Of a DNA stretch of 64,000 nucleotides, positions 11,837 to 50,078 are shown piece after piece. A program made the translations under genes and the position numbers. The number at the start of each line of letters is the position of its first letter. Positions within the stretch are counted from its first letter, which is position 1. Under the pieces are notes generated by a model that did no database searches, was not told the DNA's origin, and saw only the letters and a list, made by a program, of their open reading frames with translations. Origin of the DNA: Candidatus Latescibacterota bacterium (GTDB lineage: Bacteria > Latescibacterota > UBA2968 > GCA-2709665); the NCBI GenBank assembly GCA_965219455.1, contig OZ244744.1, positions 5,536,001 to 5,600,000 on the forward strand. The letters run 5' to 3'.

Positions 11837-13815
<1,979 letters not shown>

Positions 13816-13833: not shown

Positions 13834-14577
13834 TTACGTATCCTGCCAGTCAAACGCGTCGCCGCACAGGGGTACGAATCGCAGAACCGTATCCCCGACG
13901 CCGATATGGCTATGCGCAGGTAATTCAGTTGGAACCAGTACGGGCTGATCCCCCAGGTAGGTCAAATTGGCGCCAACGCCGTGCTGCACGGTAAACTTCC
14001 TGCCGCGGGGATCGTAGTTCACGATGGCATGTCCCCCCCGGGATACCTGACTATCGCCGAAATCGAGGTTCACGCGAGCGGTCTCTCCCCGGCCAATGGT
14101 ATTTTGCCCGTAACCCAGCTGAAGGGCTTTTCCCTTACCGGGTCCCTCGACAATCGCCAACCACCCCACAACCGGATTATTCATGCCGTCGGCTTCGACG
14201 GCGGGCTTCCGCTTTTCACCCGGCGTCGGGCGCCCACCGATGTTGATGACTGTGCGTTCCTCCTCCTTTCCCGGTCCGGGCGTTGAGGCGCGCTTTTTCT
14301 TACGTCGTCCGACGGGGAAGTCGGTTGCCGGTTCCGTCTGTCCAAGCAGTTTTGTGGGCTCATCCAGGCGGCCCCCGCCAGCGACGTCGCCACCCCGCTC
14401 CGGCGCGGGTTGCCGCCCCGGCTTAGTGGGTTCATTCGAACCTCCCGCGGTCTCACGGCCACCCGGATGGGCCGGCGGCGCCAGATCTTCAATCCGATCA
14501 GTCGGCACGGTTCCGTCGTCCGTCTTTTTACTTTTCTCCTCCACGATCTTGCCATCGGGTCCGCGGTAAACGGGCAT
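13834..14577 (-). CDS. FHA domain protein with disordered N-terminus (copy A)
   Basis: VVGWLAIVEGPGKG, NTIGR, DSQVSRGGH, NLTYL FHA motifs; N-terminus carries repeated EPTK/ERTV Thr motifs. Confidence 0.85.
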   Translation of the reverse strand: MPVYRGPDGKIVEEKSKKTDDGTVPTDRIEDLAPPAHPGGRETAGGSNEPTKPGRQPAPERGGDVAGGGRLDEPTKLLGQTEPATDFPVGRRKKKRASTPGPGKEEERTVINIGGRPTPGEKRKPAVEADGMNNPVVGWLAIVEGPGKGKALQLGYGQNTIGRGETARVNLDFGDSQVSRGGHAIVNYDPRGRKFTVQHGVGANLTYLGDQPVLVPTELPAHSHIGVGDTVLRFVPLCGDAFDWQDT

Positions 14578-14919: not shown

Positions 14920-15693
14920 TCATTTTTCATACAGCCTGTTAATCAGATTATCCAGACAGTACTGGCCCGACCGGTTCAACGCCATTTCCTCTTTCTGCTG
15001 CACGACATGCAGGGCAAAGACAAGCAACGCCGATTGGAGCAGGGCAAGCAGAGTCGTGTAGAACGCAACGCCCAGCCGCCCGGTGATCTCCGGCAGCAGA
15101 TTCGGATCCTGTGGATTTTCATTGCTTCCGGCGTAATCCAGCGCCAGGGCGATCCCCACAACCGTGCCGATAAAACCCAGCGTGGGAATCAACCAGACCA
15201 GGTACCGCAGCATGTTGTATTTGAGTTCAAGCTCGTGTTGAAACAGTTCAAGGGAAGAATTCAAGAGAGAATTCGCCTGGTTGACGGATCCGCTGCCCTG
15301 GAATTGCAGGATGCAGCGCAAGGTCAGACGCTGCAGAAAATACGTCGGCTCCCCGTCCGCCGGGCGCAACCTGTTATAGAGAGGGCCCAGGTCCTGCGAT
15401 CGCAACATGCTCGTGTCGTCTTCCGGTAGATATCGCATCGAGAGTTGCGCTGTCTCCAGGTTGGATTGGTTGAACCGCCGCCACAACTCGCCGCAACTGA
15501 TGAAAAACATAATCCACATGGTATTCTGGATGGAAAACGGATAGGAATTCGCCTGCCGATCGAGCAGGAAGTCGCCAGCCATGGAATCGCCGCTCTTGAA
15601 AATGAAGCTCATTACGGCAATGAATACAACGCCGGTGACCACGCTCACGCCGAATGCGATCAGCCGTAGATTCGTCTCGGAATTCCGTTCCAT
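14920..15693 (-). CDS. MotA/TolQ/ExbB proton-channel family protein (copy A)
   Basis: IPTLGFIGTVVGI and LGVAFYTTLLAL signature TM helices; start taken at ATG 15693 (MERNSET), just after the FHA gene. Confidence 0.88.
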   Translation of the reverse strand: MERNSETNLRLIAFGVSVVTGVVFIAVMSFIFKSGDSMAGDFLLDRQANSYPFSIQNTMWIMFFISCGELWRRFNQSNLETAQLSMRYLPEDDTSMLRSQDLGPLYNRLRPADGEPTYFLQRLTLRCILQFQGSGSVNQANSLLNSSLELFQHELELKYNMLRYLVWLIPTLGFIGTVVGIALALDYAGSNENPQDPNLLPEITGRLGVAFYTTLLALLQSALLVFALHVVQQKEEMALNRSGQYCLDNLINRLYEK

Positions 15694-15694
15694 A

Positions 15695-16081
15695 TCAGCC
15701 CTCGTCTGGAATGATTTCACCTGTATCGGGATTGCGGCGTACGTTGCCCCCGGGAAGGGCGTCCGCCTGTTTCGGGTCGGCAGCCGGGCGCCCCGGGTCC
15801 TGATCACCCCTCGCTCCGAGTTTCTGCAGTAGTCCGAGCGCAGTTGTCTGGTGACGACCGAGGAGAATTGCATCCTCTGGGGATATGAATTCCTGCCTGA
15901 TGCGGATCCACTCGCCATTCCGCGCCACGTAACTGCCGTTCCTGCTCGCACAGTCGGTCAGATAGTACGACCCTTTCGCGGTTACGACCAACTCGGCGTG
16001 GATACGTGAGACCGTGGCGTCGTCAATGCGAATATCCGCGTCCGTACCGCGACCGATTCTATACGTCGAAAAGCCGGACAT
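15695..16081 (-). CDS. Small FHA domain protein (copy A)
   Basis: YRIGR, DATVSRIHA, SRNGSYV. Confidence 0.9.
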   Translation of the reverse strand: MSGFSTYRIGRGTDADIRIDDATVSRIHAELVVTAKGSYYLTDCASRNGSYVARNGEWIRIRQEFISPEDAILLGRHQTTALGLLQKLGARGDQDPGRPAADPKQADALPGGNVRRNPDTGEIIPDEG

Positions 16082-16872: not shown

Positions 16873-18489
16873 TCAGGATTTGGAAACCATCAACTCCACG
16901 TCGCCCAGCGCAACAGTGGCGCCATAGTCCAGACGCTCCGGACGAAAGGGAGGCAGGCGACGGCGATTCAGCAACGTCACGTTGCTCGAGTTCAGATCTT
17001 CGATACGAAATCCATTGTCAGCAGCGCTGATTCTGACGTGACGCCTGGATACATTGTCGTCGTGGATGACTTCATCCACAAGGTCCGGATGCCTGCCCAG
17101 CGAAAGTCCCAGCCGTTGTCCCACGAATTTTTCCGGCGATAGCGCGATGCGAACGCGGTTGCCCCGCCCGTCGAACCCGGCCAGCACCAGACCGTGTCCC
17201 GGGCGCTGCCCTTCCGGTGGTCCTTCAACCGCCCCGTCGTGCGCTCTTCGTCTGATGGGCCGGCTCAGCTGTTCGGCAACGTGGATGATCTGCTGCCGTG
17301 GTTTCTTCAGGCCGAGCAGCAGGGCCGCGAATGTCAGGATACCAAGAAACGTCCCACCTATAAGAAAACGCCGTCGCGACGCTTCAGCATGCAGACGAGT
17401 TTCTTCAACTTCCCGCATCGCTTCTTCCACCTGGCGCGCGGCCTCACCTGCCTGGCGCTTCGCATCCTCCGCCTCCTGGCGCGTCCGTCCCGCTTCCCGG
17501 GTCGCTTCCTCCGCTCGCCGGGTCGCTTCTTCGGCCTCCTGGCGCGTCCGTCCTGCTTCCCGGGTCGCTTCCCCCGCTCGCCGGCTCGCTTCTTCGGCCT
17601 TCCGACGCGTTTTTTCTGTTTCCCGGCTTGCTTCTTCCGCCAGGCGCCTGGCCTCCCCCGCCTGGCGCCTGGCCTCCCCCGCCTGGCGCGTCGCTTCTTC
17701 CGCTTCGCGGCGTGCCTTTTCCGCCTCCTCGTATCCACCGGCGCCACCTGCCGGCGCGCACGGACTGGTTTCCGGTGTTTGGAAAGGGATTCGGTGATCG
17801 CGAAGCAGCGTTACCAATTCCTCCACGTGTGAAGACCAGTATATTCCCGCCGCGTGGGGCACGCGGGTGACTCCCTCGGATTGGCTTTCGATGACAACGA
17901 GAGACGCCTGCGTATTCACGCCAATCACCCTCCCGCAATCATCCAACAGTGGTCCCCCGCTGTTACCGGGATTCGTAGGGGCGTTGTGTTGAATAATTCT
18001 GAACGTCTGCGTGTGCCAGGCACCGGAAAAGAGCCTGCCGATGACGCCGTCCTGCACCGTCGCATCATCGGCGAAACTCTCTCTATCTGCCTCTCCAGGA
18101 TAGCCGATGGCCCACACCTTCTGTCCAGCCTTCAGTTCAGCGAGGGAAAGCCGCACGGGCGGGAGATCGAGTCTTCGCGCGTGGAGGATTGCCAGATCCA
18201 GTTCGGTGGATACGGCAATCACCTTGACGTTGTACAGGGAATTGGACTTTGCAGGGCGAACCCTGATCCGGCCGCCGCTGTCAATCACATGGAGGTTTGT
18301 GGCGACAAATCCTCGATCATTGATCACAAACCCTGTACCTGTGCCGATCCCCTGGTTCGTCTCAGTCAGAATCCGAACAACACTCCTCTTCAGCCTGTTG
18401 AAATCCGGCGTGGCCAACACGTCGTGCCCGTGTAAGAGAAACGCGATCAGGAGACAGACGGCACGCAACGATCTGACAGCTTTCCGCAT
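16873..18489 (-). CDS. Trypsin-like serine protease - coiled coil - TM - FHA protein, intact triad (copy A)
   Basis: Signal peptide; TNLHV, DLAIL, PGNSGGPL; AEEA/AGEA heptad repeats; TM; LGR...VSRRH...DLNSSN. Confidence 0.9.
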   Translation of the reverse strand: MRKAVRSLRAVCLLIAFLLHGHDVLATPDFNRLKRSVVRILTETNQGIGTGTGFVINDRGFVATNLHVIDSGGRIRVRPAKSNSLYNVKVIAVSTELDLAILHARRLDLPPVRLSLAELKAGQKVWAIGYPGEADRESFADDATVQDGVIGRLFSGAWHTQTFRIIQHNAPTNPGNSGGPLLDDCGRVIGVNTQASLVVIESQSEGVTRVPHAAGIYWSSHVEELVTLLRDHRIPFQTPETSPCAPAGGAGGYEEAEKARREAEEATRQAGEARRQAGEARRLAEEASRETEKTRRKAEEASRRAGEATREAGRTRQEAEEATRRAEEATREAGRTRQEAEDAKRQAGEAARQVEEAMREVEETRLHAEASRRRFLIGGTFLGILTFAALLLGLKKPRQQIIHVAEQLSRPIRRRAHDGAVEGPPEGQRPGHGLVLAGFDGRGNRVRIALSPEKFVGQRLGLSLGRHPDLVDEVIHDDNVSRRHVRISAADNGFRIEDLNSSNVTLLNRRRLPPFRPERLDYGATVALGDVELMVSKS

Positions 18490-18492
18490 GAC

Positions 18493-20070
18493 TCACTCCG
18501 GGATCAGACGCACCTGAAACACCACGGGCCCCATCTCCAACCGATCGTTGTCCCGCAATTCCTCCGGTTCATTGGCGTTGAGCGTGCGGCCGTTTACCCT
18601 GGTTCCGTTCGTGGAGTTCAGGTCCTCCGCGTAGAGGCGTCCGCCGGCATACGAGAACCTGACGTGTTCGCGTGAGACGGCTTCGTGGGCGATGATAAAT
18701 TCCGAGTTGGCGGGGCTTCTTCCCAGCGCAACGCCGGAGGGCAGCGCCAGCGCCGGGACGCTCAACACAAAGGGCCGCCCCACGTCGTCCTGGCCTTCCA
18801 GCAGACACCTGAACGGCGCGGGTTGGGGCGCGCGCGCCGCGGCCTGCCGCGCGGCTTCTGCCTGCCGTTCCGCCTCTTTGGCGCGGGATGAACTGCTGTG
18901 CAACTGTGCTCTTTTCGCGCGTGCGAATAGCAACCAGCCGAGAAGCAATAGAACGACGACGGCAGCCCCAGCGAGAACGGTCCATTGAAACCGTTCGGAC
19001 GTCTCTTCGCGCTCCTGGTTCTGAACCGCGGCCAGGCTATCCCGTGTTGTCCGGAGTCGATCTGCCGCCGACATTCTTATGGAATCCGCACGCGTGCGGG
19101 CCAGGGAATCCGCCCATGCATGCGCCCGTGTCAAACTGTCTTCCCGCGCCTGTTTCAAGGAATCGGTCCGGGCCTGCGCGCGTTCGAGGCGTCTTCTTTC
19201 TGCCCTCAGGCGTTCGTCCGCCGCCGACTTTATGGAGTCCTCCCGCGTCTGCCGCAGGGAATCTGTCCTTGCCCGTTCCCGTCTCAGACTGTCTTCCCGT
19301 GCCCGGGTCAGGGAATCTTTCCGCGCCTGCGCCCGTCTCAAGCTGTCTTCCCGCGCCTCCGCGCGTTCAATAGCAGTCAGGCATGCGTCGTCAACGAAGG
19401 TATGGGCAATTTCCGCATCATTGAGCACGTTCACGATATCGCCGCTGCGCAACGCGAAGACGGTTCCCCTGGGATCCTTGTCGTTCCGGAACGGCCAGCG
19501 CCCGCTCTCCGGGTCGGGCAGGTTGATGCCAACCACGTCCCCACATTCATTGAACACGGGCATACCGAACGCCCTTGACGTCACAATGGCGTTGTGCTGC
19601 AGCAGATGTACGACGGAATCGGCAGGGGTCCTGCCCGGGACGTCCTGGTGGGCGCCGATGGTACCGCGGGCAACCCGGACGCTGTCACCAGCGGCGAACG
19701 TGAGGGTCTCCACCACCCGCCCCACGCCGGCCCCCTGCTCCGACAGGCTCAGGGGCGGGGATCCCAGGCCCTGCACGCGCAACAGAGCGAGGTTCATCTC
19801 CCTGCTGGCGAATACCTCCCGGGATAAAATCTCCGCACCAGTCTTCAGGGACAACACGGTCACCCGGTCCGCATTCGCCAGGAGGTGCGCGTTGGTCAGC
19901 ACGTCTCCGTTTCCATTCACGACAAAGCCGCACCCTTCGGCCGCGACCCTGTTATATCTGTGCGCACGCACCCGGACGATGCTCTCCGATACGACGTCGA
20001 CGTCGATTTGCCCGAACGCCGGGCCGGCCAACGAGAACACAGCGATCTGCACAAGCAACGAGACTCGCAT
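18493..20070 (-). CDS. Degenerate trypsin-like domain - REDSL repeats - TM - FHA protein (copy A)
   Basis: GCGFVV, TNAHL retained, but NLALL and AFGMP replace DLA and NSGGP; FHA LGRS...VSREH...NSTNGT; start ATG 20070. Confidence 0.85.
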   Translation of the reverse strand: MRVSLLVQIAVFSLAGPAFGQIDVDVVSESIVRVRAHRYNRVAAEGCGFVVNGNGDVLTNAHLLANADRVTVLSLKTGAEILSREVFASREMNLALLRVQGLGSPPLSLSEQGAGVGRVVETLTFAAGDSVRVARGTIGAHQDVPGRTPADSVVHLLQHNAIVTSRAFGMPVFNECGDVVGINLPDPESGRWPFRNDKDPRGTVFALRSGDIVNVLNDAEIAHTFVDDACLTAIERAEAREDSLRRAQARKDSLTRAREDSLRRERARTDSLRQTREDSIKSAADERLRAERRRLERAQARTDSLKQAREDSLTRAHAWADSLARTRADSIRMSAADRLRTTRDSLAAVQNQEREETSERFQWTVLAGAAVVVLLLLGWLLFARAKRAQLHSSSSRAKEAERQAEAARQAAARAPQPAPFRCLLEGQDDVGRPFVLSVPALALPSGVALGRSPANSEFIIAHEAVSREHVRFSYAGGRLYAEDLNSTNGTRVNGRTLNANEPEELRDNDRLEMGPVVFQVRLIPE

Positions 20071-20554
20071 AAAGAGACTCTCCTGGAGGAAAGTGAAAGG
20101 TCTCACAGTATGGACAGGATTCCGGTCTTTGGTTTTATCCTGTTCATCCATGTTCCTCGATTTCGTGAATTGAAGCCATACTCGCCACGTGTTGCGAAAC
20201 GCAACAGATGGCGCATATTGCGACAGTCTGGCGCGCACGATGCCGGACACGTCCGACGTTTCAGTCCGGTCTCTTCTCTTTCGAGTATTGCCCGGACAAC
20301 GCATTGCGCGGAACATCCGCCAACCTGAATCGTTACCGAACCGACAATATATAGTCTACTATTCTTAATGCAACCATTAGATATTTTACGTATTTATATA
20401 TACTTTACATTTTTATATACACGTTCGGTACTATTTTCCGCGAGTTTACCCATCGTCGTGGCTGATTGTTCTCATCGGCGTTGACTTTAGACGCATTTAA
20501 ACGTGCGCCACGGATACAGGCCGGGCGCGACCGCGGAATACAGGTAAACAGGGA

Positions 20555-20648: not shown

Positions 20649-21704
20649 CCACAACACAAACTTACAGTTTGTGTAACGATTGTACGGTAGTCTGACAGTT
20701 TGTGTTACGACCGTACTGCAATCTGCCGGTTGTGTAGCGGCCCCTATACCGGTTGTATAGCGTCCCCTGTTCTGGTTATGCAAGGGGCGACGGAGACACG
20801 TTCACCGATGGACGGATCCCCTTATACAAAGAGGCATATGGCGATAAACACCGAAAAAAAACTCCAAATACTAACGATTCTGTTTGATCCGGTGTCATGA
20901 ATCACCACTCTTGTGCGACATCCCAGATTTTCTTGGTCGACTCCCAGCTGCCATAATTCCTGACCGATTTTAGAACGGCGTCACAATTCCGAATAACCCA
21001 GCCGTACGCGACTTTAGCCCACGCCCAATCTAAAGCTAACCTCAATTCGAAAAAACAGCAACGCGGCGCCGCGACGAAAACTTCCGAAACGGGGCATAAA
21101 GGTCGTCCAAAAGGATGTTTTTTCCGTTCACGTCCAGTGACCCTATGTATCCTGGAAATCCGACGTCAAATCGCCTTTGTTCTTCTGTGTATATTCGACT
21201 TAAGGTCCCCAAAAAACGACGAATCAAGGTTAACAGTTGTAATGCAAAACACTGCCCTCTTCCAGGAAGCCTCCCGGTCTCCGTGCAAAATCGGCCGCCA
21301 CGTGCGACGATCGGCGCGCCACCGACGTGGCGTTCGCCCGGGTCGCAAGGCCGGAAAGGTTGCAGCCAGCCGCAGGGGCGACCGGCCGGTCGCCCCTACA
21401 AATAACGCGAATCGATCATCTCCACTCCGACACGGGACTCTGAGGTCTCGGTTTCATGGACGTGAGCAGACAGGAATGTCCGCTCCACCCTCTCAAGCCT
21501 CTTCTCGATGTTCGCTCGAGCGCATCAACCATCATCTCCACGCCCGTACAATGGCTTGTCGAGCCCGTGAAGAATCGCGTGTGAAGGTGGGGCAGACATT
21601 CCTGTCTGCCTTTTTCAGTGTTCTTCTGCCGGAATGCAGATAGAAGAAAGGCGCCCACGGCCTTCTTATCGCAGGGCGACCAGCCGGTCGCCCCTACAAA
21701 TACC

Positions 21705-22736
21705 TCATCTCGTTTCCCCGGACTCGGTGGCGCTGTCCGCGGCTGCCGAGGGCCTCTCGGGGGTGTCCCCCTTCTCTTCCACTGTCGAATCCTGGATTTT
21801 GCTGCAGGTGTCCTTTTGCTCCGATTGCGGGGCAGGCAATCGAGTGAGCTTTTCCTTAAGCGCCGACCAGAGCCCTGACAGGCCACCCTCCTGTCGCGAT
21901 GCCGGGATCTCTTCGTCCTGATCGGCGTTTTGCGCGGCGCTGTCTTCGGAAATCGTCTCCTCGCCGCAATCAGCCTCCGGCGAGTAGAGCAACACGGTCG
22001 TGTTGTCCTGGTAGGGACGTTCCGCGGCTTCCACGGCATGGATCAGCGCGCCGGCGTCGTCGTCGAGTGACGCGTCGCGATTATCGCAAAGGATTCGCTC
22101 GATCTCCTCATCCTCGAGGGTCAACAGGCCGTCGCTTGCCAGCAAAAGTCGATCTGTTTTCCGGACCGCAACCGGCTGGGACGAGACGTCAACCAGGTGG
22201 ATCTCATCGCCCATCACCGCGGAGCGCAGCGCGTGCCGCTTGGAATCCGTGGCCGCCTGTTCTGCGGTCATGCGCCCGGCCGCTACCAGGCTGGCGAGTA
22301 CCGGCGCCATGGAGTGATCCGCATTCAGGCGGCGCAACCGGCCGTCGCGGAACAGCCAGAGCGGGGAATCCCCCACGCTGATCCAGTCGATTCCGTCGCG
22401 CGAAATCACCGCAGCGACCACCGTGGACCCCATGCCCTTCATTTGGGGATTTTCGCTCGTCGCGTCGGCAAGCGCATCGTTGGCGGCGGCAAGGCAGGCG
22501 CGCAGACGGTCGGTGATCGGACCGTCGGTGCCGGGATAGGTCTCCACGAACGTCTTGACAACCGCCCTGCTGGCCGTATCGCCGCTCACGTGCCCCCCCA
22601 TCCCGTCGGCCAGCACCAGCACCTCGCCGCCGTCCTCGTCGGCGTCACCCCGCTCGATCAGGCCGTAATCGTCCTCCTGGTATTCCCGGCCGCCGGGAAT
22701 CTGCCCCGCGGCGAATCGTCCTTCCAATCGGTTCAT
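21705..22736 (-). CDS. PP2C-family Ser/Thr protein phosphatase (copy 2)
   Basis: Same motifs as 4350-5381 and near-identical catalytic domain. Confidence 0.93.
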   Translation of the reverse strand: MNRLEGRFAAGQIPGGREYQEDDYGLIERGDADEDGGEVLVLADGMGGHVSGDTASRAVVKTFVETYPGTDGPITDRLRACLAAANDALADATSENPQMKGMGSTVVAAVISRDGIDWISVGDSPLWLFRDGRLRRLNADHSMAPVLASLVAAGRMTAEQAATDSKRHALRSAVMGDEIHLVDVSSQPVAVRKTDRLLLASDGLLTLEDEEIERILCDNRDASLDDDAGALIHAVEAAERPYQDNTTVLLYSPEADCGEETISEDSAAQNADQDEEIPASRQEGGLSGLWSALKEKLTRLPAPQSEQKDTCSKIQDSTVEEKGDTPERPSAAADSATESGETR

Positions 22737-22790
22737 GGCATTCCTCCATTACGGCGCAGGACCGATGCCGTCCCATCAGTCTTGCATTCC

Positions 22791-22924
22791 ATCACGGATC
22801 GTTGCGGCGCCCCTCCCCCACGTTCGCGGGGCAAGAGGGACACCGCACCCACCTCATCATGACCGTCCCTGGACGCTCCGTTGCATACCCGGCACCCCCT
22901 TGGGGACACCGGCTCCAGCCGTCG
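22791..22924 (-). ncRNA. Putative structured DGR RNA spacer 3' of the TR
   Basis: Non-coding, directly follows the TR; stem ggtgtccctc/gaggggcgcc (G-U pairs on minus strand); 88-bp homolog at 32605-32692. Confidence 0.55.
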
Positions 22925-23045
22925 AGCGTGCGGGCAATACGAAACCCGTTGTTGTTGTTCCGTTTGCCGGTGGTATTCCTGTTGCGGTTCGCCGAGCGCA
23001 GGTTCCTCGGTTTGTTGTTCCACGAGCCGCCGCGCAACACGCGCT
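22925..23045 (-). repeat. DGR template repeat (TR)
   Basis: 121 bp reading cgcgtgttgcgcggcggctcgtggAACAACAAAccgAggAACctg...cggAACAACAACAACgggtttcgtattgcccgcacgct; AAC-rich copy of the 3' end of the FGE genes. Confidence 0.96.
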
Positions 23046-24130
23046 CAGGAGGGACGATCAGGCTTCCAAAGCGGATCGAACCACCCGCCTCGAAAGATCG
23101 CATGGCGCAAACGCCATGTATTGGCATGCTCTGCATGCGCGATCCACGCGTGCACCCGCGCGTCCACTTCCTCGCGTGTGATATGTGCATGACGCCAGCG
23201 GTCGCGCATACTCCGCAACCGGTTGCGAAAGCGGCGCACATTGGCTTCAGGCAACCGCCGGTATCCGCCCGGCAGGAGCACAAAACCCAAGAAAGTGGTC
23301 GGTGCTAATGTCTCGTCAATCATCGTTTTTTCCGGGTGCAGAGACAGCCGGCGGCGCTGCAAAAAATCCGCGATGCCATCCCGCCAGGCAGCGAGTTGTT
23401 CCGGGTCGTCGTGAAAAAGCGCAAAGTCGTCGACGTAGCGGACGTAGCCGCTGGCTCGCAACATTTCCTTGCAGAAGTGATCCAGGCCGTCCAGGTATAA
23501 ATTGGCGAAAAACTGGCTGGTCAGATTGCCAATGGGTAACCCGCGCCGGCGTTCGATAGGCGTGAACAGATCGTCCCCAGGATAGTAAATATTCACCGGC
23601 TCCTGCGGATTGGAACCATCAATGATGCGGTCGGCCAGCGCCAGCGTGCGCTCACAGGCGATTCGACGGCGTAGATCCGCCTTGAGAATCTCGTGATCGA
23701 TGGCTGGAAAGTAACGGTAAAGGTCGCACCTCAACACGTGGCGAAAACGGTCGCGGAACCGTTCGTAACGCACGATCGCCCGGTGGGTTCCCTTGCCCTG
23801 ACGATTCGCATAGCTGTCGAAAATGAAACCGCGCTCGAAGAGCGGCTCAACGACACCGCAAAAGGCGTGATGGACGACACGGTCCCGAAACGGCGCCGCG
23901 GACACGGTGCGTCGTTTGGGTTCGCGGATCTCGATCGTCTTGTAACGGCCCGGACGATAGCGCCCGCTTTGGAGTTCCCGCTCAAGGCGCAGGACCTTGG
24001 GCTCCAGGTTCGCCAGGAACCCAGCCGCGACGGGTTTGGACCGTTTTCCCCGTGCCGCTTTTCGGGCCGCCACCATCAGGGCCGGGAAGGAAACGATCTC
24101 TCCGAAAATATCACGTGCTCTTGTGGGCAC
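23045..24130 (-). CDS. DGR reverse transcriptase
   Basis: APFRDRVVHHA, YANRQGKGTH, GLPIGNLTSQFFANLYL (DGR-type SQ motif), YVRYVDDF; probable GTG start 24130 overlapping the end of avd. Confidence 0.95.
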   Translation of the reverse strand: MPTRARDIFGEIVSFPALMVAARKAARGKRSKPVAAGFLANLEPKVLRLERELQSGRYRPGRYKTIEIREPKRRTVSAAPFRDRVVHHAFCGVVEPLFERGFIFDSYANRQGKGTHRAIVRYERFRDRFRHVLRCDLYRYFPAIDHEILKADLRRRIACERTLALADRIIDGSNPQEPVNIYYPGDDLFTPIERRRGLPIGNLTSQFFANLYLDGLDHFCKEMLRASGYVRYVDDFALFHDDPEQLAAWRDGIADFLQRRRLSLHPEKTMIDETLAPTTFLGFVLLPGGYRRLPEANVRRFRNRLRSMRDRWRHAHITREEVDARVHAWIAHAEHANTWRLRHAIFRGGWFDPLWKPDRPS

Positions 24131-24509
24131 GATGCACCTTTTGCCAGCCGCCGACAAGGCGTCCGGTTTCGTCGAGGGTCCTGGCGGCATGTTCGTAGCG
24201 ACGGAGATCAAGATAATGCAAATCACGGGCGAGCCGGCACAGAAATCTTAGCTTCTCGATGCCCAGGTTGGCGAGCGCAAGCGCATCACCCCGGCGCCTG
24301 GTGTAAGTCGCCTCGATCAGACGCTCCAGAACGTCCAATGCCGACGTCTGAATCCTATCTCCCAGAAGAAACTTCTGGCTGCGCGGGAAACGCTCGACGG
24401 TGGGGACCAACCAGACCAGAAAACGAAAGTGGGACTCCAGCGCCGGGCCAATCTCGCGCGAGCGGTCACCCCGGCCAGGAACTGGCTGTTGGCCGTCCCT
24501 TGCGTTCAA
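24111..24509 (-). CDS. avd: DGR accessory variability determinant (Avd, four-helix bundle)
   Basis: FPRSQKFLLGDRI...LEKLRF-like...ETGRLVGGW pattern; basic ~130 aa protein directly upstream of the RT. Confidence 0.9.
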   Translation of the reverse strand: MNARDGQQPVPGRGDRSREIGPALESHFRFLVWLVPTVERFPRSQKFLLGDRIQTSALDVLERLIEATYTRRRGDALALANLGIEKLRFLCRLARDLHYLDLRRYEHAARTLDETGRLVGGWQKVHRAHKST

Positions 24510-24635
24510 AACCGCCCTCCATTTTTCAGTATGTCGACATGCCTTGGCATACGTGCCTTTCCACCAGAGCCGGTCCTACCAAGATCGCACCTACTGGCAA
24601 CGACCGGGTCTTTAGCATGCCCAGACCGAAAATTC

Positions 24636-24658
24636 CCAGGGGGGCTGTGCCCCCCTGG
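24636..24658. promoter_or_regulatory. DGR target-recognition hairpin downstream of VR3
   Basis: ccaggggggc-tgt-gcccccctgg, 10-bp stem and 3-nt loop, about 30 bp after the stop codon. Confidence 0.85.
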
Positions 24659-24688
24659 ACCCCCCATAAGACGTAAAGAGGTAAAGAT

Positions 24689-27334
24689 TCAAGGCGTAAG
24701 CGTCCGGGCAATACGAAACCCGATGACGATGACCCGTCTGCCGGCGGTATTCCTGAAGCGGAACGCCGAGCGCAGGAACCCCGGTATGATGCCCCACGAG
24801 CCGCCGCGCAACACGCGCTGCGCGCAGGCACCCCGCCCCCACGCCGTTCCGTCCGCAGGCGCTCCTGTATAGCTGTCGTTCCAGCAATCCCCAACCCACT
24901 CCCATACGTTGCCGTGCACGTCATACAAACCCCACGCATTGGCGCTGAAACTTCCCACAGATACCGTCTTTTCCCTATTCCGACCCTTCCGACCACTGCC
25001 ATACGTATAATTCCCGTTGTAATTCGCCTGGGCCGTCGTAATCGTCGATCCAAAATGAAATGGCGTCGTCGTACCCGCACGAGCCACGTACTCCCATTCC
25101 GACTCGCTCAACAATCGATACCTTTCACCAGTCCTTCGCGACAACCACCGCACGTACGACTGCGCGTCATCCCAACTCACATTCATCACCGGGCGGTTCC
25201 CACGGCCCCAGCCCCTGTCGTTGGGACGATATCCACCGCAACCTCCGGCATTCGCGCACGCGTCCCATTCCGCAAACGTGACTTCATATACACCCACCGC
25301 GAACCGATAATCGATACTCACGCGATGGCGCGGACCCTCATCGTCATCACGTCCCGACTCCCCACCGGGAGACCCCATCATAAACTAGCCCGACGGCACC
25401 ACCACCATCTCCGGACATTCTGCACAGTCCCTGAATTTTCCGCCTACCGTCCTGCGCAGCCGCTGGGTTTCTCGCGCTGCCGACAGACGGCCTTCCTTCC
25501 CGGACAACGTTGACGTTTCCGCATCGACTGCGCGTAATGAATCCACATACCCTCCCGCCTTGTCAAACGCCTCTTCTTCCAGGGTTTTCTCAAACATCCC
25601 TTTATACCGCTCGATTTTGGCTTGGCGAAGACGTTCTGTTTCCTCTGCAGCAATCCGTGCACTCTCGGCTTCCTGGCGACTTCGCTCCGCCTCGCGCGCA
25701 GACGACAGACGACCTCCCAACTCTGACAACAAGCGAGCAGATGCGTTTACAGCACGCAATGAATCCACGTAACTGCCCGCACGATCGAACGCCTTCCCGC
25801 CCAGGGATTCCTCGAACTTCCGCTTATGTTCCGCGATTTTAGCCTGACGAAGACGTTCTGCCTCCTCCGCTGCCAAACGCTCCCTGCGCTCCTCCTGGCG
25901 ACGACGCTGTTGCACCGCGCGCGCCGCAGACAGGCGCTCTTTCAGACTCGACAACACCGGCGCATCGGCCCAGACACCCCGTATCCGGGACATATTCTTA
26001 TCCGCCTTATCGAAATCCTTGTCCTCCAAAGCTCCGTCAAATTTGGATACGTAACGACCGATCACGCTATCCAGACCGGCGCTCGCTTCCTTATGGCCCG
26101 GCGCCAGAACCAATACCGCCTGATATTTCTCCCAGGCGTTGTTCCCCGCGGGACTCGTCAGCCGGTCCCGCGCCAGGTCTTCCACAGCACCGCCCAATAA
26201 TGCGGAGACCTGCGCATCCTGTTCCGCTTCCATCGCACGGCGAAGCTGATCCGGGCGATGGATGTGTTCATAGTAATAGTAGCCCCCTCCGATCAGAAGC
26301 GCCAACACACATACGAGCATGGCGAACAACGGTCCTTTGCGCTTCCCGGGCTGCCTGACGGGTGGATCATCGACGGTCTCGCGCTGCCGTGATCTCGGTG
26401 GGCGACCCTTCGCGGGCTTGACGACCGGCCGCGGTTTCTTCGCGGTGCCCGGCGTCTCCCCGGAAAGCGCAGTACGCCACGCGGCCACGCTCTGCGGGCG
26501 GTCGCCCTCATCCACCTTCAACGCCAAATCTATCGCCGCCAGAAATCCTCCGCTCGCCTGCCCGACGCTACGCTCGGCCACCGGCGTCAATGGATCGTTC
26601 CGCACCCTATCCGTGGCATCGTCAGGCACTCCACCCGTCAACGCGTGGTAGCACACGGCGCCCAGCGCATACACGTCCGTCCAGGGACCCTGGTCGCCGC
26701 GACTGGAATACTGCTCGATGGGCGCGTAACCCGGCGTGATGATCGACGTAACCGAGCGGCTGCGCGCCCCGATCGCCTGCCGAGCAGCCCCGAAGTCCAG
26801 CAACACCGGCGAATCGTCCGCGTCACGGATGATGATATTTCTCGGCTTGATGTCACGGTGCAGAAAGTCAGCCCCGTGAACCACCTCAAGACCGTCCAGG
26901 ATCGGATATAGGATCGCCTTCAGTTCCGCTTCGTCCAACGTCTTTCTGCGTTTGAGGAATTCCGACAGCGTGTCCCCCTCGGCATATTCCATCACGATAT
27001 ACGCCGTGCCGTGCGCCTCAAAAAAGCGAAACACTTTGATGATATGCCGGTGGTCGAAGCGGGCGAGGGTGCGCGCTTCGTCCAGGAATCGTTCCAGGCC
27101 CCACTCGAAGTCGCCGCGAAAGTGACTCGCCTGCGGCGCCACGCTATTATCGGCCGTACGGGTGGCGATATCGGCGGGAAGGTATTCCTTGACCGCGACC
27201 CCTTTGTCCAGGTTGTGGTCAAAGCCCAGATACGTCATCCCGAAGCCGCCGAAGCCCAGCACTCTCACCAGTTCGTACTCCTGCAGCCGATGCCCCTGGG
27301 GCAGGGCGTTGAGCGGGTGTTGCGCGTCGTTCAT
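24689..27334 (-). pseudogene. Receptor kinase - FGE paralog 3 (cognate DGR target) split by an in-frame TAG into 649-aa and 230-aa ORFs
   Basis: VVVPSG*FMMGS; TAG at 25385-25387 where paralogs have Ser (TCG/TCA); both halves are in the same frame. Confidence 0.85.
24699..24819 (-). repeat. DGR variable region VR3 (cognate)
   Basis: 19 mismatches to the TR, all at TR adenines; the only non-A difference is in the terminal IMH/IMH* (cgg versus cgc). Confidence 0.96.
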
Positions 27335-29131: not shown

Positions 29132-31777
29132 TCAAGGGGTAAGCGTCCGGGCAATACGGAAACCGATGACGTCGTTCCGTTTGCCGGCGGTGTTCCCGTC
29201 GCGGTCCGCGGCGCGGAGGTTCCCCGGGTAGACGTACCACGAGCCGCCGCGCAACACGCGCTTCGAACAATCGCCCCGCTCCCACGCTGATCCTTCCGCA
29301 GGCGCACCCGTATAGCTGTCGTTCCCGCAATCCTCAACCCACTCCCATACGTTCCCGTGCACGTCATACAAGCCCCACCCATTGGCGCTGAAACTGCCCA
29401 CAGATACCGTCTTTTCCCGATACAAACCCTTGCGACCGCCGCCGTACGTATGTTTGCCATTATAATTCGCCTGATCCGTCGATATTGTCGATCCAAAATG
29501 AAACGGGGTCGTTGTTTCCGCACGAGCAACGTACTCCCATTCCGACTCACTCAACAAGCGATACCTTGCACCCGTCTTTTCCGACAACCACTGAACGTAC
29601 AACTGCGCGTCATCCCAACTCACGTTGATCACCGGGCGATTCCCGCGCCCCCAGCCCCTGTCGCTGGGACGATATCCCCCGCAACCCCCAGCGGACGCGC
29701 ACGCGTCCCACTGTGCAAACGTCACTTCATACACTCCAACCGCAAACCGATAACCGATCACCACGCGATGGCGCGGACCCTCGTTATCGTAACGTCCCTC
29801 CTCGCCGCCGGGAGACCCCATCATGAATGAGCCCGACGGTACCACCACCATCTCCGGACAATCCGCGCAGTCCCTGAATTTTCCGCCTACAGTCCCACGC
29901 AGCCGCTGGGCCTCACGCCCTGCCGACAGACCACGCACCAATCCGGACAACGTTGACGCTTCCGCATCGACTGCGCGTAATGAATCCACATAGCCATCGG
30001 CCCTGTCAAATGCCTCATCTTCCAGGGCTTCCTCAAACTTGCCCTTATACCGCTCGATCTTAGCCTGGCGAAGACGTTCTGCTTCCTCTGCAGCCCTGCG
30101 TGCACGCTCGGCTTCCTGACGACTTCGCTCCGCCGCGCGTGCAGACGACAGACGATCTCCCAACTGTGACAACAAGCGAGCAGATGCATTGACAGAGCGC
30201 AGCGATTCCACGTACCTGCCCGCTGCATCGAAATCCTTTCGGCCGAGCGATTCCTCGAATTTTCGTTTGAAATCCGCCACTTTGGCCTGATGAAGGCGTT
30301 CCGCCTCTTCCGCTGCCAGCCGCTCCCTTCGCGCTTCCCGCTGACGACGCTGTTCCGCACCGCGCGCAGCAGACAGACGGTCTGTCAGGCTCGACAATAC
30401 GGGCGCATCGACCCACGCGCCCCGTATGCGAGACACATATTCTTCCGCCTTGTCGAACTCCTTGGTACGCAATGACGCATCAAACTTCGTCACGTAGCGG
30501 CCGATTACGCTGTCCAGTCCCGCGCTCGCCTCCTTCTGACCGGGCGCCAGGGCCAATACCTCCTGGTATTTCTCCCAGGCATTATTGCCCGCGGGACTCG
30601 TCAGCCGGTCCCGCGCCAGGTCTTCCGCAGCACCGGACAATAGCGCGGAGATCTTCGCTGTTTGTTCCCCTTCCTGCGCCTGCCGGCGCTGCGCCGGCAG
30701 ATGGATGTTCTCATAGTAGTAATAGCCCCCGCCGATCAGAAGCGCCAACACACATACGAGAACGGCGGCGAACAACGGTCCTTTGCGCTTCCCGGGCTGC
30801 CTGACGGGTGAATCATTGACGATCTCGCGCTGCCGTGATCTCGGTGGGCGACCCTTTGCGGGCTTGACGACCGGCCGCGGTTTCTTCGCGGTGCCCGGCG
30901 TCTTTCCGGAAAGCGTAGTACGCCACGCGCCCACGCTCTGCGGGCGGTCCCTTTCATCCACCTTTAATGCCCAATCTATCGCCGCCAGAAATCCGGCGCT
31001 CGCCTGACCCGCGCAACGCTCGGCCACCGGCGTCAGCGGATCATTGCGTACCCGATCGGTCGCATCGTCCGGGACGTCACCCGTCAGCGCGTGGTAGCAG
31101 ACAGCGCCCAGCGCATACACGTCCGTCCAGGGCCCCTGGTCGCCGCGACTGGAATACTGCTCGATGGGCGCGTAACCCGGTGTGATGATCGACGTAACCG
31201 AGCGGCTGCGCGCCCCGATCGCCTGCCGCGCCGCGCCGAAGTCCAGCAGTACCGGCGAATTGTCCTCGTCACGGATGATGATATTGCCGGGTTTGACGTC
31301 ACGGTGCAGAAAATCAGCCCCGTGAACCACTTCCAGACCATCCAGGATCGGATATAGGATCGCCTTCAGTTCCTCTTCGTCCAACGTCTTTCTGCTTCTC
31401 AGGACCTGGGAAAGCGTCTCCCCCTCGGCGTATTCCATCACGATATATGCCGTGCTGTGCGCTTCGAAAAAGTGATGCACGCGCACGATATTGGCATGCT
31501 GGAAACGCGCCAGTATCCGCGCTTCATCCAGGAACCGGTCCAGGCCCCATTTGAAATCCGCGGACGCTTCCGACGACTGCGGGACCACCGACATGTCGTT
31601 TTCCCGCGTCGCGAGATCGGATGGCAGATACTCTTTGATCGCCACGGGGATATCCAGCGCGATATTCCACCCCAGATAGGTGATCCCGAATCCGCCCTGG
31701 CCCAATACACGGTGAAACTCGAAGTCCTGTATTCGCGTGCCCTGTGGAAGCGCCAACCGGTGGTGCGCGTCGTTCAT
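29132..31777 (-). CDS. Receptor Ser/Thr kinase - TM - stalk - FGE-sulfatase protein, paralog 4
   Basis: Full kinase and FGE motifs; distinct kinase N-lobe (MNDAHHRLALPQGTRIQDFEF). Confidence 0.93.
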   Translation of the reverse strand: MNDAHHRLALPQGTRIQDFEFHRVLGQGGFGITYLGWNIALDIPVAIKEYLPSDLATRENDMSVVPQSSEASADFKWGLDRFLDEARILARFQHANIVRVHHFFEAHSTAYIVMEYAEGETLSQVLRSRKTLDEEELKAILYPILDGLEVVHGADFLHRDVKPGNIIIRDEDNSPVLLDFGAARQAIGARSRSVTSIITPGYAPIEQYSSRGDQGPWTDVYALGAVCYHALTGDVPDDATDRVRNDPLTPVAERCAGQASAGFLAAIDWALKVDERDRPQSVGAWRTTLSGKTPGTAKKPRPVVKPAKGRPPRSRQREIVNDSPVRQPGKRKGPLFAAVLVCVLALLIGGGYYYYENIHLPAQRRQAQEGEQTAKISALLSGAAEDLARDRLTSPAGNNAWEKYQEVLALAPGQKEASAGLDSVIGRYVTKFDASLRTKEFDKAEEYVSRIRGAWVDAPVLSSLTDRLSAARGAEQRRQREARRERLAAEEAERLHQAKVADFKRKFEESLGRKDFDAAGRYVESLRSVNASARLLSQLGDRLSSARAAERSRQEAERARRAAEEAERLRQAKIERYKGKFEEALEDEAFDRADGYVDSLRAVDAEASTLSGLVRGLSAGREAQRLRGTVGGKFRDCADCPEMVVVPSGSFMMGSPGGEEGRYDNEGPRHRVVIGYRFAVGVYEVTFAQWDACASAGGCGGYRPSDRGWGRGNRPVINVSWDDAQLYVQWLSEKTGARYRLLSESEWEYVARAETTTPFHFGSTISTDQANYNGKHTYGGGRKGLYREKTVSVGSFSANGWGLYDVHGNVWEWVEDCGNDSYTGAPAEGSAWERGDCSKRVLRGGSWYVYPGNLRAADRDGNTAGKRNDVIGFRIARTLTP
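29142..29262 (-). repeat. DGR variable region VR4 (second template family)
   Basis: Colinear with the TR; variation at TR adenines plus fixed non-A differences (ctc cgc gcc, aac, ggt ttc) shared with VR8. Confidence 0.8.
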
Positions 31778-34769: not shown

Positions 34770-37460
34770 TTACGGTGTAAGCGTCCGGGCAACTCGGAAG
34801 CCATTAATGATGATCCGCCACCGGTTAGGTTTCTCGAGGCCAAGCGCCCATTGGAACAGGTTTGAGCCCTCGAGCTTGCCACGAGCCGCCGAACGGAGAC
34901 CCCCGGGTCCGTGCAACCACGAACCGCCGCGAAACACGCGCCTTGAACAGTTACCGTGTTCCCACGCCGTTCCATCTGCAGGCGCTCCTGTATAACTGTC
35001 GTTCCAGCAGTCCTCCACCCACTCCGACACGTTCCCGTGAACGTCATATAGACCCCACGCATTGACGTTGAAACTACCTACAGATACCGTCTTTTCCCGA
35101 TACATGCCCTTGCGACCACCGCCATAGGTGTAGTCGCCATCGTAATTCGCTTGAGATGTCGAAATCGTCGTACCAAAATGAAACGGGGTCGTTGTTCCCG
35201 CACGCGCCACGTACTCCCATTCCGACTCACTCAACAGGCGGTACTGTTTACCCGTCCTTTGCGACAGCCATCGCACGTACGACTGCGCGTCGTTCCAACT
35301 CACGTTAATCACCGGCCGATTCCCGCGACCCCATCGCTTATCTTTCGGACGATGTCCTCCACAACCCCCGGCAGACACGCACGCATCCCATTCCGCAAAC
35401 GTCACCTCATACACACCCACCGAGAACCGATAGTCGATCCGCACACGATGCCGTGGACCCTCATCATCGTCACGCCCCGCCTCACTTCCGGGAGATCCCA
35501 TCATGAACGATCCCGATGGTACCACCACGATCTGGGGACATTCCGCACAGTCCCTGAATACCCTGCCTACTGCGTATTCACGCGCTTTTAATAATCGTCC
35601 CGTCAACTCCGACATCACTGACTCATCCATGTCAATTGCCCGCAGCGAATCCAAATACGCTCCCGCCTTATCCAATGCCTCTTCTTCCAGCGCTTCCTCA
35701 AACTTCCTCTTATATTCCGCAATTTTGTCCTGACGTAGACGTTCTGCCTCCTCTTCAGCCAGCCTTGCCATTTCCGCTTCCTGACGCCGCCGTTCGGCTT
35801 CCTGATGACGCTGTTCCGCCTCACGCGCCGCAGACAGGCGACCTGCCAACTCTGACAATAGGGGAGCAGATGCATTCACAGCACGTAGCGAATCCACGTA
35901 ACGACCAGCGGTATCGAAATCCTTCCGGCCCAGTGACTGATTATATTTTCCCTTGTATTCCGCCAATTTATCCTGGCGTAGACGTTCCGCCTTCTCGGCG
36001 GCCAACAGTGCGCGTTGCTTCTCCTGACGCCGTTGTTCCGCTACACGCGCCGCGGACAGGCGATCTTCCACGCCCGCCAATGCCGGCGCGTCGGCCCACA
36101 CACCCCATATCCGCGACACGTACTCATCCGCCTTATCGAAATCCTTCTCCCGCACCGACGCCTCGAACTTCGCCACGTAACGCCCGATCACGCTATCCAG
36201 ACCGGCGCTCGCTTGCTTGTGGCCGGGGTCCAATGCCAACACGGCCTGGTATTTCTCCCACGCATTGTTGCCCGCAGGACTCGTCAGACGATCCTGCACC
36301 AAGTCTTCAACAGCACCGGACATTAACGCGGATATCTTCGCATCCTGTTCCGCTTCTTGCGCCGGCCGACGCCGATCCGGACGATGGATGTTCTCATAGT
36401 AGTAATAGCCACCTCCGATCAGAAGCGCGAACACGCACAAGACCGCAGCGAACACCGCCCCGGTGCGTTTCCTTTTCCGCCTGACGGGTGGTATAACCGC
36501 CCGTCCGCTCCGCCTTGGTGCCACGGGGCGACCCTTAGCGGGCTCTGCGGCTGGACGCGGTTTCTTCGCGGTGCCCGGCGTCTTTCCGGAAAGCGCACTA
36601 CGCCACGCGCCCACGCTCTGCGGGCGGTCCCCCTCATCCACCTTCAACGCCCAATCTACCGCCGCCAGAAATCCTGCGCTCGCCTGACCCACGCCACACT
36701 CGGCCACGGGCGTCAATGGATCATTGCGCACCCGATCCGTCGCATCGTCCGGGACGCGACCCGTCAGCGCGTGGTAGCACACCGCGCCCAGCGCGTAAAC
36801 GTCCGTCCAGGGTCCCTGGTCGCCGCGACTGGAATACTGCTCGATCGGCGCGTAGCCCGGCGTGATAATCGACGTGACAGATCGGCTGCGCGAACCGATC
36901 GCCTGCCGCGCCGCGCCGAAGTCCAGCAGCACCGGCGACCTGTCTTCGTCACGGATGATGATATTACCGGGCTTGACGTCGCGGTGCAGAAAGTCAGCCC
37001 CGTGCACCAGCTCCAGGCCGTCCAGGATCGGATAGAGGATGGCCTTAAGATCCTCTTCGTTCAACGTCTTTCTGCTTCTCAGGACCTGGGAAAGCGTCTC
37101 CCCCTCGGCGTATTCCATCACGATATACGCCGTGCCGTGCGCCTCGAAAAACCGATACACGCCTATAATGTTGGGATGGTGGAAGCGGGCAAGGGTGCGC
37201 GCCTCGTCCAGGAATCGTTCCAGGCCCCACTCGAAGTCACCCCGGAACTGGCTCGCTTTCGGGACCACGCTGTTGTCGCCCGTGCGCGCGGCGATATCGT
37301 CCGGGAGATATTCCTTGACCGCAACCCCTTTGTCCAGGTTGTGGTCAAAACCCAGATACGTCATCCCGAAGCCGCCGAAACCGAGAACCCGCACGAGTTC
37401 GTATTCCTGCAGCCGATAGCCCTGGGGCAGGGCGTTAAGAGGATGTTGCGCGTCGTTCAT
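34770..37460 (-). CDS. Receptor Ser/Thr kinase - TM - stalk - FGE-sulfatase protein, paralog 5
   Basis: Full motifs; VR-equivalent segment is diverged and carries an insertion of about 13 aa. Confidence 0.92.
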   Translation of the reverse strand: MNDAQHPLNALPQGYRLQEYELVRVLGFGGFGMTYLGFDHNLDKGVAVKEYLPDDIAARTGDNSVVPKASQFRGDFEWGLERFLDEARTLARFHHPNIIGVYRFFEAHGTAYIVMEYAEGETLSQVLRSRKTLNEEDLKAILYPILDGLELVHGADFLHRDVKPGNIIIRDEDRSPVLLDFGAARQAIGSRSRSVTSIITPGYAPIEQYSSRGDQGPWTDVYALGAVCYHALTGRVPDDATDRVRNDPLTPVAECGVGQASAGFLAAVDWALKVDEGDRPQSVGAWRSALSGKTPGTAKKPRPAAEPAKGRPVAPRRSGRAVIPPVRRKRKRTGAVFAAVLCVFALLIGGGYYYYENIHRPDRRRPAQEAEQDAKISALMSGAVEDLVQDRLTSPAGNNAWEKYQAVLALDPGHKQASAGLDSVIGRYVAKFEASVREKDFDKADEYVSRIWGVWADAPALAGVEDRLSAARVAEQRRQEKQRALLAAEKAERLRQDKLAEYKGKYNQSLGRKDFDTAGRYVDSLRAVNASAPLLSELAGRLSAAREAEQRHQEAERRRQEAEMARLAEEEAERLRQDKIAEYKRKFEEALEEEALDKAGAYLDSLRAIDMDESVMSELTGRLLKAREYAVGRVFRDCAECPQIVVVPSGSFMMGSPGSEAGRDDDEGPRHRVRIDYRFSVGVYEVTFAEWDACVSAGGCGGHRPKDKRWGRGNRPVINVSWNDAQSYVRWLSQRTGKQYRLLSESEWEYVARAGTTTPFHFGTTISTSQANYDGDYTYGGGRKGMYREKTVSVGSFNVNAWGLYDVHGNVSEWVEDCWNDSYTGAPADGTAWEHGNCSRRVFRGGSWLHGPGGLRSAARGKLEGSNLFQWALGLEKPNRWRIIINGFRVARTLTP

Positions 37461-37550: not shown

Positions 37551-38307
<757 letters not shown>

Positions 38308-47300: not shown

Positions 47301-47301
47301 A

Positions 47302-50075: not shown

Positions 50076-50078
50076 ATT

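Follow-up and report, generated by a model that had tools for sequence, protein, structure and literature searches.

A chromosomal diversity-generating retroelement of a Latescibacterota bacterium with its template behind the reverse transcriptase gene and an in-frame TAG in its nearest target

In a 64,000-nt stretch of DNA from Candidatus Latescibacterota bacterium (GCA_965219455.1, contig OZ244744.1, positions 5,536,001-5,600,000; the window in what follows), a reverse transcriptase (RT) gene runs directly into a repeat, a near-copy of which ends a gene for a kinase-lectin protein. Is this a diversity-generating retroelement (DGR) that has rewritten the tip of the lectin, why does its template abut the stop codon of the RT gene, and is the element still at work? 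We find that a target gene, the accessory gene avd, the RT gene and a template repeat (TR) form a chromosomal DGR, and we consider it highly probable that the variable repeat (VR) of the target arose by mutagenic retrohoming from the present template. The element is likely an ordinary, quiet member of the known DGR class. The minus strand carries every DGR-related gene, and the parts of the locus, in terms of open reading frames (ORFs), domains and repeats, are as follows:

24689-27334, minus strand: receptor-kinase gene, whole (27334-24689), with the FGE-sulfatase domain at its end
25385-27334, minus strand: 5′ part of the target, with Pfam Pkinase (1.4e-36), one hydrophobic (transmembrane-like) segment and a repeat-rich linker; ends at a TAG
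24689-25381, minus strand: 3′ part of the target, with Pfam FGE-sulfatase (6e-49, profile positions 15-255 of 255); carries the VR
24699-24819, minus strand: variable repeat VR24699, most likely written from the present TR
24704, minus strand: marker base of the VR, G opposite the TR C at 22930 (TR position 116); the single non-adenine TR/VR difference
24636-24658, minus strand: GC-rich hairpin with a 10-bp stem and a 3-nt loop, starting 40 nt past the VR
24111-24509, minus strand: accessory gene avd, given as the longest ORF; its true start is maybe further in
23045-24130, minus strand: DGR reverse transcriptase gene, 361 aa from the GTG at 24130, with the stop TGA at 23047-23045
22925-23045, minus strand: template repeat, the sole TR of the 5.84-Mb genome

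Pairwise alignment of the TR (23045-22925) with the VR (24819-24699) was gapless over 121 nt and gave 20 mismatches, namely 12 A>T, 7 A>G and one C>G in the direction from TR to VR. This confirms the alignment reported in a first-pass annotation of the window, with its 19 adenine substitutions and single C/G difference. The annotation had also proposed to look for mismatches lacking an adenine bias; differences fell nearly all on TR adenines (19/20), as is typical of a DGR. Given 33 adenines among the 121 nt of the TR, at least 19 of 20 mismatches on A correspond to a binomial P of 2.8e-10 and a hypergeometric P of 2e-12. Since the VR differs from the template only at adenines and at one marker base, it most likely results from mutagenic retrohoming from the present template. 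Moreover, there are zero non-A differences over the 113 nt located 5′ of the C/G marker, so the last writing of VR24699 postdates every substitution in the TR.

The potential for variation is large. As counted on the printed codons, the stretch of the TR bounded by the codons for Trp (TGG) and Gly (GGG) contains 30 adenines, distributed over nine AAC, one AAT, two AAA, two AGG and two ACC codons. This count gives 4^30, or about 1.15e18, DNA variants and agrees with the earlier estimate of about 10^18; the codons are indeed mostly AAC, and stops can be reached by adenine mutation only from the two AAA codons, as had been stated. Position 1 of the TR is the last base (A) of the RT stop TGA, while the bases at -1 and -2 differ between TR and VR. 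The homology thus begins where the first-pass annotation placed it, and the RNA located 5′ of the TR is RT coding sequence. A second TR elsewhere was considered as a source of older VRs and rejected, because blastn of the TR against the 5.84-Mb genome found none; all TR-like copies of the genome fall inside the window.

The proteins encoded next to the TR were then compared with known families. The best solved relative of the RT is the reverse transcriptase of PDB 8ub7 (E 4.9e-42), which we take to be the BPP-1 bRT complex; the best group II RT came at 5.2e-20. The RT matches PHROG_1423 'Reverse transcriptase' (9e-105) and contains the motifs IGNLTSQ and YVDD. The SQ signature is a hallmark of DGR RTs, and relatives align to the protein from residue 1, end to end, at up to 80% identity. 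Judged by its sequence, the RT belongs to the DGR clade. Its gene overlaps the 3′ end of avd, whose product scores 100.8 bits against the NCBIfam DivGenRetAVD equivalog, above the cut-off of 80, and also matches Pfam bAvd (4.9e-17) and the PHROG 'Avd protein of DGR' (5.8e-21). The VR spans the final ~40 codons of the FGE-sulfatase domain, that is, the tip of a C-type-lectin fold as in DGR targets, within an ORF that is cut upstream. With a DGR-type RT, Avd, a lectin-type tip of the target and adenine-specific TR/VR differences, the core reading of the locus as a DGR is borne out.

A scan of one genome per species yielded 79 loci with an RT 47-80% identical to that of the window. One of them (L079) was left out since its ORF has no stop within the locus, and 78 loci were evaluated. 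The metagenome-assembled genomes (MAGs) of these relatives are labelled as more than 10 phyla or classes. A TR-like copy was found at most 700 nt downstream of the RT in 65 of the 78 relatives and not in the other 13; in most of the 65 it starts 1-7 nt past the last RT-homologous codon. In 46 of these loci the RT ORF reads across the entire TR; in four it ends within the TR, in two (L004 and L064) it overlaps the TR start, and in 13 its stop comes ahead of the TR. The closest relative, L004 (80%, a Latescibacteria MAG), shares the layout in which the stop lies on TR position 1, with a TAA where the window has the TGA. Among the TR/VR pairs of the relatives, 42 have at least 80% of their mismatches at A, and the targets end in an FGE-sulfatase domain in 26 of 26 tested, their N-termini varying (kinase, caspase, ankyrin, TIR and others).

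RTs 62-80% identical and TRs 70-93% identical in DNA were observed across Acidobacteriota, Latescibacteria, Alpha- and Gammaproteobacteria and Dehalococcoidia; further labels of such relatives are Nitrospirales, Spirochaetia, Binatia and others, several with sponge-associated family names. The sequences point to a horizontal spread of the avd-RT-TR unit. A full-text literature search turned up no paper on DGRs in sponge symbionts.

The single difference that does not fall on an adenine is conserved as well. TR position 116 is a non-A mismatch in 38 of the 42 pairs of relatives, usually with C or T in the TR and G or A in the VR, and the marker G is present in all seven VR-like copies of the window. 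By these alignments the base behaves as a marker of the initiation of mutagenic homing type (IMH in the VR, IMH* in the TR), which supports the interpretation proposed in the first-pass annotation. IMH and IMH* of BPP-1 differ at several bases, whereas here they differ by one. Past the VR, a GC-rich hairpin of at least 7 bp follows 32 of the 42 adenine-biased VRs of relatives at offsets of 33-67 nt, mostly 33-45. Within the window it was found only after VR24699, VR29142 and VR52224 and not after the four other copies. The window hairpin alone does not fold better than shuffled sequences (z = -0.64), so the support for it comes from its conservation in relatives and not from the fold. We regard the hairpin at 24636-24658 as a candidate DGR target-recognition hairpin; a short T run directly follows, and the hairpin may double as a terminator. 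The target shows both an IMH distinct from IMH* and a downstream hairpin, each with a putative function in target recognition.

The coordinates of ORFs, domains and hairpin on the minus strand bear out the order VR-hairpin-avd-RT-TR (5′ to 3′) given earlier, and the contrast drawn there with the BPP-1 order avd-TR-RT also holds. The layout is, however, already catalogued and not new. Here avd, RT and TR lie in this order on one strand, with no other accessory gene among them, and Wu et al. 2018 (PMC5758913) define avd-RT-TR as architecture B2. According to Schillinger et al. 2012 (PMC3521204), DiGReF group 2 has the TR downstream of the RT and group 3 has a TR overlapping the annotated RT ORF at its 3′ end. 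Compared with B2 and with groups 2-3 as these authors describe them, the locus arranges avd, RT and TR in the same way, its TR likewise lies at the RT ORF's 3′ end or overlaps it, and it does not differ in kind; its own trait is that the first TR position coincides with the last base of the stop codon.

Why the template abuts the RT stop codon is suggested by the RNA around it. The TR is followed by ~140 nt of conserved non-coding RNA. At gathering thresholds, no Rfam family was found over the TR region. Relatives were aligned if the TR starts at most 30 nt from the RT end, the locus is long enough and the sequence is not a duplicate, which gave 58 relatives and, with the window, 59 sequences. 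For the region past the TR, RNAalifold returned a consensus fold of 33 pairs, 28 of them with compensatory changes. On an alignment extended 45 nt upstream of the TR, three helices were named; they and the elements next to them are located as follows:

23050-23060, minus strand: 5′ strand of helix 1, made of the last RT codons; pairs with 22870-22860
22924-22931, minus strand: 5′ strand of helix 2 (P1), made of the 3′ end of the TR; pairs with 22878-22871, C22930 unpaired
22889-22912, minus strand: helix 3, the hairpin P2, starting 13 nt past the TR
22860-22878, minus strand: 3′ strand of P1 (22871-22878) and, directly after it, the 3′ strand of helix 1 (22860-22870)
22806-22844, minus strand: P3, terminal hairpin of the conserved RNA after the TR (columns 142-195, many pairs compensatory)
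22854-22859, minus strand: conserved TGATGA, unused by the RT of the window

In the three-helix structure 93.2% of cells pair, compared with 34-45% if the partners are slid by 1-3 columns, and 0 of 500 shuffles reached any of the observed measures. Helix 1 joins columns 43-53 to columns 269-279; eight of its 11 pairs are compensatory and 10 of the 11 are standard pairs in at least 56 of the 59 sequences, the terminal pair being formed only in 2/59. In helix 2, 96.4% of cells are paired and four of the seven pairs are compensatory; in helix 3, the values are 94.7% and nine of 11. All three helices are intact in the window sequence.

These elements recall the RNA of the BPP-1 DGR, for which a template:primer duplex, an avd:Sp 'cPRT Stop' duplex and an Avd-binding stem-loop have been described, the upstream strand of the stop duplex being supplied by the 3′ end of avd (bioRxiv 10.1101/2023.10.23.563531). 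In 207 of 278 Avd-DGRs, according to the same report, Avd-binding stem-loops directly follow the TR. As in that description, the RNA of the window has a duplex joining sequences upstream and downstream of the TR, a duplex at the 3′ end of the TR and a stem-loop just past it. By analogy, helix 1 is the predicted counterpart of the avd:Sp 'cPRT Stop' duplex; in helix 2, the 3′ end of the TR would be the template strand and 22871-22878 the primer strand of the template:primer duplex; and the hairpin P2 is the predicted Avd-binding stem-loop. The 3′ end of the RT gene would then take the place held in BPP-1 by the 3′ end of avd. On this mapping, the contact of the TR with the RT stop is explained by the RT gene's 3′ end standing in for that of avd, and the different gene order would be mechanistically conservative.

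A sequence of events can be proposed on the model of BPP-1. The transcript of the operon, either whole or as a processed portion, would fold so that the last RT codons pair with the segment located 3′ of the TR, and this duplex would act as a stop for cDNA synthesis. The 3′ end of the TR would pair with the adjacent segment to give the template:primer duplex, while the hairpin just past the TR would bind Avd. Starting near position 114, the RT-Avd complex would work backwards along the TR with misreading of adenines; the resulting cDNA would be exchanged for the VR in a gene with the matching 3′ end and the GC-rich hairpin. The unpaired base of helix 2, C22930, is the TR base of the C/G marker. 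As it is located 3′ of the predicted cDNA start, copying would never reach it.

In 19 of the 46 read-through relatives, the RT ORF ends 188 nt past the start of the TR, at the first TGA of TGATGA. One example is L002:7084-7272, with a tail of 60 aa and the TGATGA just past the strand of the stop duplex. In most members of the clade, ribosomes translating the RT would carry on across the TR, the Avd hairpin and the primer strand as far as TGATGA, and the last RT codons would form the stop duplex, whereas in the Latescibacteria lineage the stop exactly on TR position 1 would uncouple translation from folding of the template. Cis-preference is known for LINE-1 ORF2p. It is conceivable, though in our view improbable, that RT gene and DGR RNA form one physical unit in this clade, that the nascent RT could capture its own RNA in the same manner, and that the lineage of the window is a natural uncoupling mutant.

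The target nearest the RT has a lesion. Its Hanks-type kinase part and its C-type lectin (CLec) part share one frame and are separated by a TAG at 25385-25387 (...VVVPSG*FMMGS), 563 nt upstream of the VR (the TAG ending at 25385 and the VR starting at 24819), while the seven paralogues of the window are intact fusions. The residue at this site is Ser in 7/7 paralogues, encoded by TCG in six and by TCA in one. Reading of TAG as a sense codon was rejected, because TAG terminates 9 of the 35 long ORFs of the window. Since TAG is an ordinary stop here and is also present in the public runs X1-X4, the in-frame stop seems real. The lectin domain cannot cross the membrane as part of the kinase, and the target nearest the RT is a pseudogene or a split gene. 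Neither the in-frame TAG nor the monomorphic VR had been mentioned in the first-pass annotation.

The window contains eight kinase-lectin genes, the target and seven paralogues, and the seven carry older or decayed copies of the VR. Three of these copies are as follows:

29142-29262, minus strand: older VR29142, in an intact 881-aa paralogue (29132-31777); 21 mismatches to the TR, 14 at A; hairpin present
52224-52344, minus strand: older VR52224, in an intact 815-aa paralogue (52214-54661); 23 mismatches, 14 at A; hairpin present
8993-9113, minus strand: VR-like copy VR8993, in an 874-aa paralogue (8983-11607); 21 mismatches, 16 at A; without the hairpin

The copies at 6012, 40010 and 42456 are far diverged, with 42-45 mismatches each, and that at 34780-34941 gave only partial blastn matches. 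VR29142 and VR52224 have non-A states in common; of the 18 sites that distinguish them, 16 are TR-A sites. By this pattern both were evidently copied from a former state of the template. The VRs of the window lie in layers of different age, two having states that are lost from the present TR and match the majority of the relatives' TRs, one being closer and one fully current. Since the TR underwent its changes at 5-9 non-A sites, none of the three other VRs has been written anew. The comparison suggests that the TR drifted while ever fewer targets were rewritten.

VR variants were sought in Logan contigs of public runs, which drop rare variants. Several observations weigh against a DGR that retrohomes as proposed into this target. 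Contigs with 0 differences over 25097-25418 were present in all four runs X1-X4, so the TAG was seen in 4/4, and the product of the target is probably not a working receptor. The contigs of five runs gave no direct sign of ongoing diversification, rare variants being hidden in such contigs: the VR was found with 0 differences in X1, X2, X3, X4 and X5, which come from two studies, one of them maybe the source of the assembly, and the depth of the VR contig in X2 was 11.4, compared with 11.9 and 11.2 for its flanks. TR adenines near the 3′ end are rarely changed in relatives (0/10 at position 108, 0/15 at 114 and 4/40 at 117), and the helices were matched with the BPP-1 elements by order and position only. 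The identity of the VR in five runs speaks only against high activity, and low-level activity is compatible with it. Runs X6 and X7, which contain the flank 24560-24694 with 2-3 differences and have no contig of at least 90% over the VR core 24740-24769, are not informative. The rare changes at positions 108, 114 and 117 fit an upstream cDNA start and purifying selection on the GFR-AR motif equally. The footprint of adenine changes was set aside as a locator of the cDNA start, since it is inseparable from selection on this conserved 3′ motif.

The alternative that survives best is a relic DGR, in which the VR was written in the past, the element no longer works and the locus is decaying; we give it real, if minority, weight. 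The TAG in all four runs that cover its site, the VR identical in five runs from two studies and the three VRs left unwritten through 5-9 non-A changes of the TR would all be expected of a relic. However, RT, Avd, TR and the flanking RNA are free of lesions: relatives match the RT over its whole length at up to 80% identity, the three helices are kept, and the absence of non-A differences 5′ of the marker places the last write after every TR substitution. We thus retain a VR most likely written by mutagenic retrohoming from the present template; since the nearest target is broken and the VR is fixed in the sampled populations, the current activity of the DGR is likely low or absent.

It could also be argued that no retrohoming took place, the TR being the decayed tail of a paralogue and the adenine bias a product of codon-level selection among paralogues, since there are eight kinase-lectin genes whose tips differ mostly at the same codons. 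The bias is, however, directional, with the TR as the sole sequence to carry A at each of the 19 sites; no lectin ORF includes the TR, which directly follows a DGR RT accompanied by Avd; and the RT-TR unit with adenine-biased VRs recurs in relatives. The directionality (19/20) and the conserved RT-TR unit already refute this explanation in practice, and we regard it as extremely improbable. An RT of a group II intron or of another non-DGR retroelement, merely lying beside a repeat, deserves next to no credence either: two real group II introns are present elsewhere in the window and the NCBIfam group II RT/maturase model matches the RT, but at 124.9 bits, far under its cut-off of 300, for which a group II identity was rejected, and neither a maturase (GIIM) domain in the RT (Pfam) nor intron RNA domains at 22700-24500 (Rfam) were found, the best solved match being the 8ub7 reverse transcriptase, taken to be bRT.

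The two introns were located by Rfam at 11863-13815 on the plus strand and 37551-38281 on the minus strand; the first holds an RT/maturase ORF (12288-13658), and the second has RNA domains and no RT ORF in the ORF list. Past the conserved RNA of the DGR lies one further gene of the kinase locus:

21705-22736, minus strand: PP2C Ser/Thr phosphatase gene, with Pfam PP2C_2 and NCBIfam Stp1_PP2C (9e-41, under its cut-off)

This gene adjoins the DGR RNA and is a member of the kinase locus, outside the DGR. Downstream of it there is a 33-nt inverted repeat pair (I1), in a region with the segments 21375-21405, 21466-21609 and 21673-21702, and the same region holds a GC-rich palindrome in two copies, then ...CTACAAATA.

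The eight membrane Ser/Thr kinase-FGE/lectin genes lie in a 50-kb cluster (4350-54661) together with duplicated accessory sets. Duplicated are the PP2C genes (4350-5381, behind another kinase gene, and 21705-22736), pairs of FHA-trypsin protease genes (16873-20316 and 48543-51758), MotA/ExbB-like genes (14920-15951 and 46527-47558) and genes for FHA proteins (13834-14577 and 45294-46238). The cluster looks like a segmentally duplicated phospho-signalling module. Tandem repeats in frame occur in the FHA-trypsin gene at 17369-17734 (63- and 21-nt units) and, with units of ~222 nt, in the extracytoplasmic linker of the kinases, at 25461-25955 and 29904-30398. A hydrophobic segment lies between kinase and lectin in these kinases, so the lectin tip would be outside the cytoplasm.

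Compared with the BPP-1 DGR (mtd-avd-TR-brt), the locus has in common the adenine-specific transfer from TR to VR, Avd, an RT nearest to bRT (8ub7 being taken as such), a VR at the C-terminal tip of a C-type-lectin-fold domain and a GC-rich hairpin past the VR. The RNAs, as far as that of BPP-1 is described in the report cited above, both have a duplex at the 3′ end of the TR, a hairpin after it and a duplex of the pre-TR sequence with a downstream segment. In contrast to BPP-1, the order is avd-RT-TR, RT coding sequence in place of avd supplies the upstream strand of the long-range duplex, the host is a chromosome and not a phage, and a membrane kinase instead of a tail-fibre protein serves as the target.

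Kinase-lectin targets have been described in cyanobacteria, where DGR variable proteins with an N-terminal Ser/Thr kinase and a C-terminal CLec, including remote paralogues, were reported, most examples being predicted to be cytosolic (Vallota-Eastman et al. 2020, PMC7517822). With the proteins described there, the present ones share the Hanks-type kinase joined to a diversified CLec/FGE domain, in one intact polypeptide in the seven paralogues but with the TAG between the two domains in the target, and the presence of several paralogues per genome, some far from the RT. They differ in their host, a Latescibacterota bacterium whose closest RT (80%) is from a Latescibacteria MAG, and in the hydrophobic segment, which would make the lectin tip extracytoplasmic. 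DGR-diversified FGE/CLec tips of putative sensors, joined to signalling domains and beside trypsin-like peptidases, were also described in the conflict systems of multicellular bacteria (Dore et al. 2024, PMC10907252). As in the systems outlined there, FHA-trypsin genes are found in the same cluster, and the targets of relatives have caspase, TIR, ankyrin or kinase N-termini; unlike in those systems, the window showed no partner of the STAND NTPase, MoxR or vWA type, and a link to defence is putative.

The distinctive points of the locus are the broken cis target, the frozen VR and the clear comparative demonstration that the 3′ end of the RT gene replaces that of avd, a replacement that stands by analogy with BPP-1. 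These results leave the knowledge of DGRs unchanged and add a well-resolved element from a little-studied phylum. They provide comparative data according to which the RNA architecture of BPP-1 would be kept when the RT gene, and not avd, precedes the template. The predicted template:primer duplex, stop duplex and Avd hairpin support the generality of the BPP-1 mechanism, and their retention would explain why the template abuts the RT stop codon. Finally, the family of eight paralogues with VRs of different 'ages' constitutes a small natural record of which targets continued to be rewritten while the template drifted.

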